IMG/VR virus record: IMGVR_UViG_3300021400_000063
Source of the DNA: a virus
Taxonomy: Duplodnaviria; Caudoviricetes
Reading direction: 5' to 3' (one strand)
DNA: 64,000 nt
The position numbers and the translations under genes were made by a program. The notes under the pieces were generated by a model. The model ran no database searches and was not told where the DNA came from. It saw only the letters and a program-made list of their open reading frames with translations. Of the stretch, positions 17,618-48,649 are shown piece by piece (the first letter of the stretch is position 1; every line of letters starts with the position of its first letter).

Positions 17618-17642
17618 AAATATGACCTCTTATTAATTATAG

Positions 17643-17656
17643 TATATCATTTTGTC
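17643..17656 (-). promoter_or_regulatory. Late-type promoter
   Basis: GACA AAATGA TATA. Confidence 0.65.
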
Positions 17657-17669
17657 ATCTGAACAAAAA

Positions 17670-17858
17670 TTATACGGGGCAGAATTAACTGCCCCGTTTT
17701 ATCAAAAAGACTAAAAGCTTTTTGCCATCGATAAGAGAAAATTCACGAAAACTCTTACCAATGGGTAATTTCAAAAAAATTTATAGGAGGATTTAAATGA
17801 AAAAAAATGACAATTGAAAGACCAAAAGACGTCAGGATGCAGGTTTGTGAATTTGTAT
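17670..17858 (-). ncRNA. Candidate late small RNA (~190 nt) with anti-SD/anti-start-codon segment
   Basis: Perfect late promoter AACA-TATAGA-TATA (17869-17856), no annotated ORF, ends at hairpin 17674-17697. 13-bp stem CCAUUGGUAAGAG/CUCUUAUCGAUGG needs two G-U pairs on the minus strand. Confidence 0.55.
17674..17697. terminator. Intrinsic terminator
   Basis: ACGGGGCAG/CTGCCCCGT. Confidence 0.75.
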
Positions 17859-17869
17859 ATCTATATGTT
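17856..17869 (-). promoter_or_regulatory. Late-type promoter (orphan; drives candidate sRNA)
   Basis: AACA TATAGA TATA. Confidence 0.6.
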
Positions 17870-17883
17870 CAAATAAAAATTTC

Positions 17884-30838: not shown

Positions 30839-30853
30839 TATATTATAATAATG
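30839..30853 (+). promoter_or_regulatory. Early-type promoter TATATT-N7-TG
   Basis: TATATTATAATAATG, identical copies at 35109, 35547 and 47614. Confidence 0.65.
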
Positions 30854-35108: not shown

Positions 35109-35123
35109 CATTATTATAATATA
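35109..35123 (-). promoter_or_regulatory. Early-type promoter
   Basis: TATATTATAATAATG. Confidence 0.65.
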
Positions 35124-35546: not shown

Positions 35547-35561
35547 CATTATTATAATATA
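35547..35561 (-). promoter_or_regulatory. Early-type promoter
   Basis: TATATTATAATAATG. Confidence 0.65.
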
Positions 35562-45988: not shown

Positions 45989-46003
45989 TATATTATATTA
46001 ATG
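45989..46003 (+). promoter_or_regulatory. Early-type promoter
   Basis: TATATTATATTAATG preceded by T-run. Confidence 0.6.
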
Positions 46004-46063: not shown

Positions 46064-46414
46064 ATGATAACATTTAAGAAAATTTTGCTTCCAATTGAGA
46101 AAATGGAAGAAATCATTGGAGACTATAACAGAGTTTCCAATGAAATCATGGAACAGCATGGTAAGCAATTAATTGCTTACTATAAGTCATTGAATAAATA
46201 TTCGACTAAAGAAATAGTCGATATTACTGGCGAGAAAATCGCCTTATTAACTAAGATCAGATTTGAACATGATCTTAGAGATATTTATGATCCATGCGAA
46301 TCTGATCCAATACTTGTTGAAAGACAAGAAGATCTCATGTACAGTATGCTATACGCTACTGAAACATATATGGATTTAAGAAGGTTGAATAAACTTAATA
46401 TTAAGAACTATTAA
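46064..46414 (+). CDS. Small early hypothetical protein
   Basis: Early promoter 45989-46003, terminator 46432-46467. Confidence 0.6.
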   Translation: MITFKKILLPIEKMEEIIGDYNRVSNEIMEQHGKQLIAYYKSLNKYSTKEIVDITGEKIALLTKIRFEHDLRDIYDPCESDPILVERQEDLMYSMLYATETYMDLRRLNKLNIKNY

Positions 46415-46431: not shown

Positions 46432-46467
46432 AATAAAACTACCCGATATTATTCGGGTAGTTTTATT
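46432..46467. terminator. Bidirectional terminator
   Basis: AATAAAACTACCCGA/TCGGGTAGTTTTATT. Confidence 0.8.
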
Positions 46468-46471
46468 TTTT

Positions 46472-47548
46472 TTATTTACAATACTTAATATAAACGCTAT
46501 TAAGCATTAAATATGAACTATAGTTTGATACATAATGAAGAACATCTAAAATAGAATTATGCATTTTAGTCTTTATATTATCATAATCAGCTTCAACAGA
46601 TTTACCTATAGTTTCCAATTCACTGATATATTGTTTAGTATGTTCAGATGTAATTTCATTTAAAGGTTTCTTAAAAGTATTTTGCATTTCTGTAGAAAAA
46701 CGTTCTTCAAATGGTATATATTTGTATTTAAACATAATATCTATAATTGACTTATCATTTAATTTATCCAAAGCATAATTTGTACAATCTACAATATCTT
46801 TATACATTAATCCATCATTTACAATTTCTTCATCATTATCTGATGTATCAAATGGTGATATTATGATAGAACTATCAGATATCAACCATTTGAAAAAAGG
46901 TTCTATATTTTTATAATACCAAAGTTTTATTGTAGCAAAAAATGATGACTGTTGTCTTTTAAGTTTTTCAGCATCTTTGTTTAATAAATAATTTACATTT
47001 TCATAATTCTTTTTACATTCATCATGTTCATCGATATATTTATTAACTATAGATATAATTTTCGTAAAAAAGTTATCTAATATAACACTTTTATCTTCTT
47101 TAAAATAATCAACATTTATATCATAAGATCTTTTTGTTACATAAATATTTTTAACACATTTACTAGTTAATAATAAAATATCATCGATAAAATTATTTAC
47201 ATTTACTTTTCCAGTAAGTTTATCAGCATTATATATTACATCCATTGCTAACATGTCATAATTAAATTCTAATACTTTATCAAAAATATAAATTATATTT
47301 GCTATTTCTTTTAAATATACACAAGCTGAATTTAAATTTTTTGGAAGCTCTGTATAATTATTAACTTTGATATAGTTATTTGTTAGATATGAAATATTTG
47401 ACCCGTCGAATATATAACCTGTAGTTTTATAATTTTCCACAAATAAATTATATATTTCGGTAATCATTTCTTTATCGTATTTAAAAGATTTAGACTTTTT
47501 ATATTTCTTAAAAAATAATCTCTCTAAAGGTTTAAATTTATTTTTCAT
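46472..47548 (-). CDS. Hypothetical protein
   Basis: AGGAG RBS before MKNKF at 47548. Late promoter 47564-47577. Confidence 0.6.
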   Translation of the reverse strand: MKNKFKPLERLFFKKYKKSKSFKYDKEMITEIYNLFVENYKTTGYIFDGSNISYLTNNYIKVNNYTELPKNLNSACVYLKEIANIIYIFDKVLEFNYDMLAMDVIYNADKLTGKVNVNNFIDDILLLTSKCVKNIYVTKRSYDINVDYFKEDKSVILDNFFTKIISIVNKYIDEHDECKKNYENVNYLLNKDAEKLKRQQSSFFATIKLWYYKNIEPFFKWLISDSSIIISPFDTSDNDEEIVNDGLMYKDIVDCTNYALDKLNDKSIIDIMFKYKYIPFEERFSTEMQNTFKKPLNEITSEHTKQYISELETIGKSVEADYDNIKTKMHNSILDVLHYVSNYSSYLMLNSVYIKYCK

Positions 47549-47563
47549 TATATGTCTCCTATT

Positions 47564-47577
47564 CATATTCATGTGTC
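47564..47577 (-). promoter_or_regulatory. Late-type promoter
   Basis: GACA CATGAA TATG. Confidence 0.55.
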
Positions 47578-47613
47578 GAAGTTCATGTTATTTTGTAAAA
47601 TGTTTATTTTTTG

Positions 47614-47628
47614 TATATTATAATAATG
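47614..47628 (+). promoter_or_regulatory. Early-type promoter (orphan)
   Basis: TATATTATAATAATG with upstream context like the 45989 copy. No ORF >=60 aa with a credible start downstream. Confidence 0.6.
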
Positions 47629-47637
47629 AATAAAAGA

Positions 47638-47666
47638 TAAGGAGGGCGCCGCAAACGCCCTCCTTA
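47638..47666 (-). terminator. GC-rich hairpin/terminator of candidate sRNA
   Basis: TAAGGAGGGCG/CGCCCTCCTTA. Confidence 0.65.
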
Positions 47667-47697
47667 AATTTAATTTTTATTCAAGGTGGTGAGCACG

Positions 47698-47796
47698 ATG
47701 AATAACGATCTATACACTTATTTTTATAGTGTACACGATTATGACGGTTCTGCGTTAACTTTAAAAACACAGATAACTCGAAGACCAGTTTATTAG
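47698..47796 (+). CDS. Possible 32-aa peptide MNNDLYTYFYSVHDYDGSALTLKTQITRRPVY
   Basis: AAGGTGG RBS-like element 8 nt upstream. Lies between early promoter 47614-47628 and terminator 47869-47898. May only be the antisense image of the sRNA. Confidence 0.3.
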   Translation: MNNDLYTYFYSVHDYDGSALTLKTQITRRPVY

Positions 47797-47833
47797 AGAA
47801 ACCGGAATCGATCCCGTCACAAATAAATGTATA

Positions 47834-47847
47834 TATACATAATTGTT
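47834..47847 (-). promoter_or_regulatory. Late-type promoter (orphan; drives candidate sRNA)
   Basis: AACA ATTATG TATA. Confidence 0.6.
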
Positions 47848-47868
47848 ATACATACATTTATTAAATAT

Positions 47869-47898
47869 AAAAGAAGGGAGAAATATCTCCCTTCTTTT
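47869..47898. terminator. Bidirectional terminator
   Basis: AAAAGAAGGGAGA/TCTCCCTTCTTTT. Confidence 0.8.
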
Positions 47899-47899
47899 T

Positions 47900-48649
47900 T
47901 TAACCTTTTTTCTGATAAAGACATTGAACTTGAAAAGTTTCAGGATTATGAACACAATCTTTTTCAAAGATTGCTTCTAATTCTTTTATATCAGATTCGG
48001 CACTACTGTACTCATCAATCTTAGTTTCAATATCAACACCACCAAATGATTGATTACCACCTTCATATTTATACTTATGATATAAAGCAAATTTCATATA
48101 AGCAATGAAGTATTCTTCAAATAATGGTTGAATATTTTTTGGAATTGTTTTTAAAGTTCTGTTTGCTTTCAGTTGTACAGTAAAATCTCTATGAGATTGT
48201 TGAGGTGGATCTACTATAAGTAAATCCGGTTCTTGGAAAGTTACTAAATAATATGATCGTGTATGAGGCATATCTGCTCTAGCAGATAAGAAGATTTGGT
48301 TTAACATGAAGTTTCCACCAGTATACACATCTGATGTATCATTACCACCAATTTGGTAATCGAAAATATCAAACCATTCAATATCTTCTTGCTCATCGAT
48401 CCATGGTACTTCAAATTGCTTAGGTATTCGATATGTACCATAATTTGTAATTTTACCAGAGTAGTCCCTAAAAGGAATAGCATCCTCTCTACGAATTCTT
48501 ACGTCATAGATTTTAGGATACCATTGTGAAAATCTTGGCAATACCTTTACGTTTAGAACGTTATTGATCATGTTTTCTGAAATCAAACCCATGATCTTAG
48601 GTCCAACCGAGATTTCCAAACTTGCAAGTAATCTAGTTCTTGAAATCAT
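47900..48649 (-). CDS. Head completion/neck protein
   Basis: Downstream of the prohead protease. C-terminal ALYHKYKY...GGVDIE resembles T4 gp13-like adaptors. Confidence 0.45.
   Translation of the reverse strand: MISRTRLLASLEISVGPKIMGLISENMINNVLNVKVLPRFSQWYPKIYDVRIRREDAIPFRDYSGKITNYGTYRIPKQFEVPWIDEQEDIEWFDIFDYQIGGNDTSDVYTGGNFMLNQIFLSARADMPHTRSYYLVTFQEPDLLIVDPPQQSHRDFTVQLKANRTLKTIPKNIQPLFEEYFIAYMKFALYHKYKYEGGNQSFGGVDIETKIDEYSSAESDIKELEAIFEKDCVHNPETFQVQCLYQKKG

Follow-up and report, generated by a model that had tools for sequence, protein, structure and literature searches.

Positions 47614-47898 of the window, by which we mean the whole AT-rich (~30% GC) stretch of 64,000 nt that was analysed, are one copy of a modular, multi-copy early-gene cassette of an AR9/phiKZ-like jumbo phage, belonging to a phage group from gut or rumen metagenomes. 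In order, the cassette comprises an early promoter of the AR9 type, a hairpin in the 5' UTR, a hairpin-held and very strong Shine-Dalgarno sequence (SD), an ORF of 46-51 aa under purifying selection, a late-promoter motif on the opposite strand and a terminator, and these features are present and beyond chance expectation. The convergent arrangement of an early sense and a late antisense promoter, which an earlier sequence-only reading of this DNA had described, recurs in 20 distinct DNA copies and, judged from their alignment, is a conserved design. We propose, as an evenly balanced call, that the cassette is an early minigene which brings its own late antisense RNA of ~200 nt, and that this RNA would turn the early gene off at a set time.

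The early promoter is of the virion-RNAP type (47602-47628, plus strand), with a T-run followed by TATATTAT-N6-G, and is kept in all cassette copies. Its core at 47614-47628 had been called a perfect early promoter, and it indeed fits the AR9 early consensus, TATATTAT-N6-G(+1) (PMC5312081), a fit from which G47628 is the predicted start of early transcription. Four perfect occurrences of the motif were found in the window, where it is enriched when up to two mismatches are allowed (11 matches vs 2.8 expected), and it is over-represented as well in the nearest genome, G001 (276 kb), which carries two RNAP beta-like genes. Early promoters elsewhere in the window, at 30839, 35109-35123, 35547-35561, 45540 and 45989, usually have a terminator and a T-run in front of them and a small hairpin only a few bases behind, which points to a general composite design of terminator, early promoter and 5' stem-loop.

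Both hairpins that the sequence-only reading had placed at the borders of the unit were recovered by a terminator scan. The first, a GC-rich hairpin at 47638-47666 in the 5' UTR of the early mRNA, was found by the scan on both strands and was retained by RNAalifold, with compensatory changes in 7 of its pairs. A U-rich tract (47637-47628) follows this hairpin on the antisense side only, and the matching plus-strand A-tract upstream of the hairpin is invariant across copies. Because the minus-strand tract comes right after it, the hairpin would act as an intrinsic terminator for an antisense RNA. The second hairpin, at 47869-47898, is a bidirectional terminator conserved in copies, at which the plus-strand early mRNA and, from the other direction, the minus-strand virion-protein gene 47900-48649 both end; when a consensus fold of the terminators was computed over the whole family, alignment register blurred it.

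Facing the early promoter, on the minus strand at 47847-47834, lies a promoter of the late, non-virion-RNAP type (AACA-N6-TA), found in 20/20 copies. The claim that it is perfect held up: the sequence, AACAATTATGTATA, is a perfect match to the extended motif of the window, AACAATTA-N3-ATA, and also fits the AR9 late consensus, AACA-N6-TA/G, in which the last base is the start (PMC5312081). By its fit to this consensus, the predicted start of a late antisense transcript is A47836. With at most one mismatch, the extended motif has 24 matches in the window vs 10.7 expected, and it precedes the SD/ATG of a number of genes, that of the prohead protease among them, by 15-35 nt; the minimal motif AACA-N6-TR alone is not enriched there (135 matches vs 125 expected).

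The late promoter overlaps the last codons and the stop of the small gene, and several lines of evidence bear on its conservation. The antisense AACA adjoins the stop codon in 20/20 distinct DNA copies, 18 of them at canonical spacing, and in a subfamily with a different C-terminus the late motif is still kept, located there in the 3' UTR. Counting only copies with the common C-terminus, we found synonymous variants at 5% (4/79) in the six overlapped last codons vs 41% (67/164) in equally conserved core codons (Fisher p = 6e-10, a probability that is not exact as the sequences are related). In distant relatives of the small protein the common C-terminal tail is not conserved. Part of the motif conservation and of the low synonymous change could be due to recent common ancestry, or to an AT-rich inverted repeat of 10 bp (47822-47831 / 47853-47862). 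This repeat, which is largely conserved, brackets the stop codon and the late-promoter core, and it might expose the promoter in a loop or fold into a hairpin at the 3' end of the mRNA.

Together, the late motif and the U-tract hairpin bound a discrete antisense unit, and both are conserved in copies. From this promoter and terminator we infer a late antisense RNA of ~200 nt (47630-47836, minus strand), which would be the complement of the entire ORF and the SD and of the greater part of the 5' UTR. Since neighbouring genes are co-directional in most copies, the antisense promoter would mostly have no downstream gene to serve. We consider that a late antisense transcript of this kind probably exists.

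Antisense transcription from late promoters has a precedent in AR9, where seven such promoters drive it, mostly late in infection (Lavysh et al. 2017, PMC5312081), and where the antisense RNAs have only been catalogued (PMC5312081). The early TATATTAT-N6-G and late AACA-N6-TA/G motifs of AR9 match those found here. Unlike in AR9, the antisense promoter described here is conserved and built into a repeated minigene cassette with its own terminator; moreover, the phage is uncultured and without detectable DNA similarity to the phage records searched, the DNA and protein searches of phage collections (two proteins tested) having returned no similar record.

Two other sites in the window carry late-type motifs. 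A late-promoter-like GACA-N6-TA at 47566-47577 on the minus strand lies 18 nt before ATG 47548 of the minus-strand gene 46472-47548, and the same site is a perfect AACA in the syntenic relative L034. ATG 47548 is likely the true start of this gene, and the start given by the ORF finder, 47572, is probably too far upstream. At 17640-17870, a minus-strand late motif (17869-17858) is followed by ~190 nt without a convincing gene, a GC-rich hairpin (~17676-17700) and a late gene, and the plus strand of this region bears an SD with an ATG and a degenerate early-like motif. This region may represent a long leader or what is left of a decayed cassette.

Between the two promoters, the sequence-only reading had seen a 32-codon ORF on the plus strand. 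Its SD, its ATG at 47698 and its stop at 47794-47796 are present, but the ORF is just the front part of a gene for a protein of 46-51 aa (47698-47842), which is broken in this window. Two-frame tblastn, alignment with L034 and the family profile delineate the gene: frame 0 (47698-47796) encodes 32 aa, and the conserved C-terminal part continues in frame +1, up to TAA 47840-47842. In the alignment with L034, the window has one extra G at 47783, along with an in-frame 6-nt indel. As the syntenic L034 does not have the extra G and keeps an intact ORF of 49 aa, the 32-aa ORF is, by this comparison, a frameshift-truncated copy of the conserved gene. The stop of the intact frame would fall inside the late motif. 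Relatives at the same locus carry an intact ORF of 46-51 aa on the plus strand of the window, with SD and ATG conserved.

Two other readings of the frame were tried and rejected. Programmed +1 frameshifting was set aside because the closest relative simply does not have the base and no slippery context is evident, and a minus-strand ORF sharing wobble positions with the plus-strand gene is interrupted by stop codons in relatives. Separately, C-terminal extensions in several metagenomic members of the protein family (P0006, P0020, P0021, P0029, P0039, P0052 and P0062) start within TA-repeat codons before the stop, which suggests frequent slippage or sequencing indels at these codons.

The protein encoded by the intact gene defines a family of its own. 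A family profile search retrieved 64 clusters at 90% identity from metagenomes, all unnamed and without Pfam domains, and an exhaustive profile search extended this by only about 20 representative clusters, taken at 50% identity, and connected the family to no known domain. The median dN/dS is 0.23 and all 118 pairs lie below 1, variability is highest at third codon positions and indels are in frame; on the strength of these substitution patterns we regard the family as truly coding. An AF2 model (pLDDT 85.8) predicts a beta-hairpin plus a helix and no hydrophobic segment, in agreement with the earlier remark that the peptide is not hydrophobic. No family for the small protein came out of Pfam, PHROGs, PADLOC, a PDB sequence search or the ESM Atlas, and fold searches gave no meaningful match (Foldseek E >=0.3, VIA Z <=3.1). 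The uracil-DNA-glycosylase inhibitor p56 appeared in the fold-search list at Z 2.4 and was not taken as evidence.

The coding region of the cassette is also strongly structured. A translation-initiation hairpin (47675-47707, plus strand) is formed in the folds of every homolog as well as in that of the window, and it takes up the ATG (47698-47700) and some of the SD (47683-47693); it comes in two different sequence versions, and the start codon is paired in each. Further along, the minimum-energy fold shows a chain of hairpins within the ORF (47711-47819), made of the helices 47711-47735, 47749-47773 and 47785-47805 and enclosed by 47742-47747 paired with 47814-47819.

This fold reproduces all four helices that had been drawn for the minus-strand RNA, but across the 20 copies the exact pairs are formed in only 60% of cells, and the exact set of four helices is, in this alignment, restricted to the sub-lineage of the window. 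The three G-U pairs that had been proposed as a signature of the minus strand are likewise present in the window as described, but they are not a family trait. The core helices comprise 323 Watson-Crick pairs, and their wobble pairs number 4 G-U on the plus strand and 11 on the minus strand; both strands fold because the core helices are nearly all Watson-Crick (323 vs 15 wobble). Two smaller elements of that drawing did not survive: a supposedly unpaired anti-SD-like segment is partly paired in the fold, and a T-loop-like motif consists of the codons for G-I-D-P.

We found that the structure over the ORF, which the sequence-only reading had pointed out, is stronger than in either of two controls. 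In the window, the minus-strand fold reaches -43.9 kcal/mol (z -5.1, with 0/200 shuffles as good) and the plus-strand fold -32.3 kcal/mol (z -1.75). Measured against dinucleotide shuffles, the 20 copies have a mean z of -4.1 (plus strand) and -4.4 (minus strand). With a synonymous-recoding null, in which the protein is kept and codons are redrawn according to the codon usage of the phage, the two means are -3.7 and -3.4, with 18/18 copies negative. These comparisons argue that strand-symmetric hairpins, too, are selected for in the coding sequence.

Compensatory changes were found at the level of the subfamily. In subfamily A, the largest (12 distinct sequences), 93.7% of cells are paired vs 26-47% with slid partners, compensatory changes occur in 7/21 pairs, some of them altering amino acids, and the covariation score was reached by 0/500 shuffles. 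Over the whole family there is no single aligned fold in common; loops recur at alignment codons ~5, 11-16, 28, 38-42 and 50, with sequences that differ between subfamilies. The preferred strand differs as well, subfamily A having the better fold on the plus strand and the window's subfamily folding better on the minus strand by 2-11 kcal/mol. A search of Rfam gave no match, the best scores being <=28 bits vs thresholds of >=48 bits, all on terminators.

Strong structure is also seen next door. The neighbouring early gene 46064-46414 (plus strand, 116 aa), with its early promoter at 45989 and its terminator at 46432-46467, is among the most structured stretches of the window (~-54 kcal/mol per 166 nt, GC-corrected z ~-4), and strong internal structure may be common to the short early genes of this phage.

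In the mechanism that we propose, the injected virion RNA polymerase would initiate at G47628 early in infection and produce the mRNA of the small protein, a compact transcript shielded by its hairpins. At the late stage, the non-virion polymerase would initiate at A47836 and make the antisense RNA of ~200 nt, which would end at the hairpin 47666-47638 and its U-tract. Because the two RNAs bear mirror-image stem-loops, they would pair rapidly via their loops and proceed to a full duplex over the SD and start codon. The duplex would stop translation and open an otherwise stable early mRNA to a double-strand-specific RNase, convergent transcription may contribute interference, and the overall result would be an early gene turned off on schedule. 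That the antisense RNA silences the early gene is the more tentative part of this proposal, and we place its likelihood somewhat below even.

Short structured cis-antisense RNAs that are fully complementary to their targets are familiar from phages and plasmids (lambda OOP, P22 sar, stem-loop kissing of the CopA/CopT type), and by analogy with them the mirror-image stem-loops of the cassette could nucleate pairing. The present case would differ from these systems in two respects: the predicted antisense RNA extends over the entire mRNA, SD included, and the predicted switch is the passage from the virion to the non-virion RNA polymerase, not a repressor circuit.

The same hairpins could instead serve the sense RNA only, making the early mRNA more stable or adjusting how it is translated, for instance if they shield it from single-strand-specific RNases while the host is being shut off, with the antisense motif weak or incidental. 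We consider this explanation unlikely. Because other early genes and promoters are likewise rich in hairpins, with 5' hairpins coming after other early promoters and the neighbouring early gene 46064-46414 being just as structured, the structure may be a general trait of early mRNAs and not an antisense switch. The sequestering of SD and ATG in every copy and the better plus-strand fold of subfamily A point the same way, and the strand symmetry of the helices fits equally well. However, the window's subfamily has its better fold on the minus strand, and wobble pairs permitted on the plus strand only are the rarer kind (4 vs 11). A role confined to the sense RNA also leaves unexplained why synonymous change is suppressed over the antisense motif and why the 5' hairpin has its U-tract on the antisense side.

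Somewhat less probable is a dual-coded element, in which a chain of RNA or DNA hairpins would be the primary functional unit and the small protein would ride along. Such an element could take the form of a sense/antisense duplex timer driven by the polymerase switch, or of a hairpin-based module for mobility or promoter presentation. If this were true, the copy in the window would still be functional at the RNA level despite its broken ORF.

The distribution of the cassette bears on a possible role of the hairpins in DNA. G001 holds four paralogous copies of the small gene and the window a single one, and the ORF of the window is closer to the G001 copy at 259.7 kb than to the syntenic copy. 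At the same syntenic site in close phages, the flanking virion gene is 97-98% identical, whereas the cassette ORF is just 69-72% identical and belongs to different subfamilies; between the window and its syntenic relative L034 the nucleotide identity is 96% in the flanking gene and 91% in the ORF. Composites of a terminator and an early promoter lie at the borders of many cassette copies. A scan of viral contigs with the SD region for further copies of the cassette returned a single extra locus, L046, which is unrelated, and no tRNA or tmRNA genes were found. One G001 paralogue of the small gene (L014, G001:C1:259097-259822) sits directly 3' of an ORF of ~1700 aa with an RNA-polymerase beta-like domain.

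A similar modularity has been described in T4-like phages, where composite terminator-plus-early-promoter motifs, known as PeSL, flank small variable early genes, and where homologous recombination between the composites would shuffle modules (PMC2839356, PMC4122927). Here, too, terminator/early-promoter composites flank many copies, and the ORF appears to have been swapped at a conserved site. Unlike the PeSL case, one gene family is re-used at several places, the internal hairpins and the antisense promoter belong to the cassette, and both the phage lineage and the promoter type are different.

The inverted repeats could also act as DNA, as cruciforms or single-strand hairpins in cassette exchange, promoter presentation or replication, the RNAs being secondary. 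The strand symmetry of the nearly pure Watson-Crick helices would fit this explanation equally well, and the several copies in differing contexts, the disparity between flank and ORF identity at the syntenic site, and the bracketing of the late promoter by the 10-bp inverted repeat speak for it. We nevertheless hold it improbable: recombination between the repeated promoter/terminator ends could explain the exchange without internal hairpins, and the cassette has no linked recombinase or nuclease.

Slightly less probable again is that the late promoter at 47847 drives the minus-strand gene 46472-47548 through a leaky hairpin and a long leader. That gene does lie on the same strand, ~290 nt downstream, and a layout of late promoter, 190-nt leader and hairpin is found before the late gene at 17.6-17.9 kb as well. 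Yet the gene has a GACA-N6-TA of its own 18 nt before its ATG, with a perfect AACA in L034, and most other copies have no minus-strand gene downstream.

The sequence-only reading had offered two functions for the unit, a type-I toxin-antitoxin-like timing switch or a second anti-RBS sRNA, and both now appear very improbable. The convergent layout, the small ORF and the predicted antisense RNA that fully overlaps it are as in a type I system, but the product is no hydrophobic membrane peptide, the toxin reading failing because the protein is predicted to be soluble (a beta-hairpin plus helix), the promoters are phage-stage-specific, and PADLOC, Pfam and PHROG hold no match for the protein. The predicted antisense RNA does bear the complement of a near-perfect SD, but any antisense of this gene must contain the complement of its SD, and the segment is partly paired in the fold, so that it gives no pointer to a trans-acting anti-RBS sRNA.

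Our preferred reading, an early minigene with its own late antisense RNA, would if true mean that, in jumbo phages possessing two RNA polymerases, the switch from one enzyme to the other itself sets off built-in antisense RNAs, and that these remove particular long-lived early transcripts; this would be a simple timing device in a portable module of ~300 bp. The cassette is also a clear case of a protein gene in which nucleic-acid pairing has shaped synonymous sites and even non-synonymous ones, and this bears on the annotation of small phage ORFs and on the reading of dN/dS. With it, a new and narrowly distributed small-protein family is defined in gut and rumen jumbo phages.
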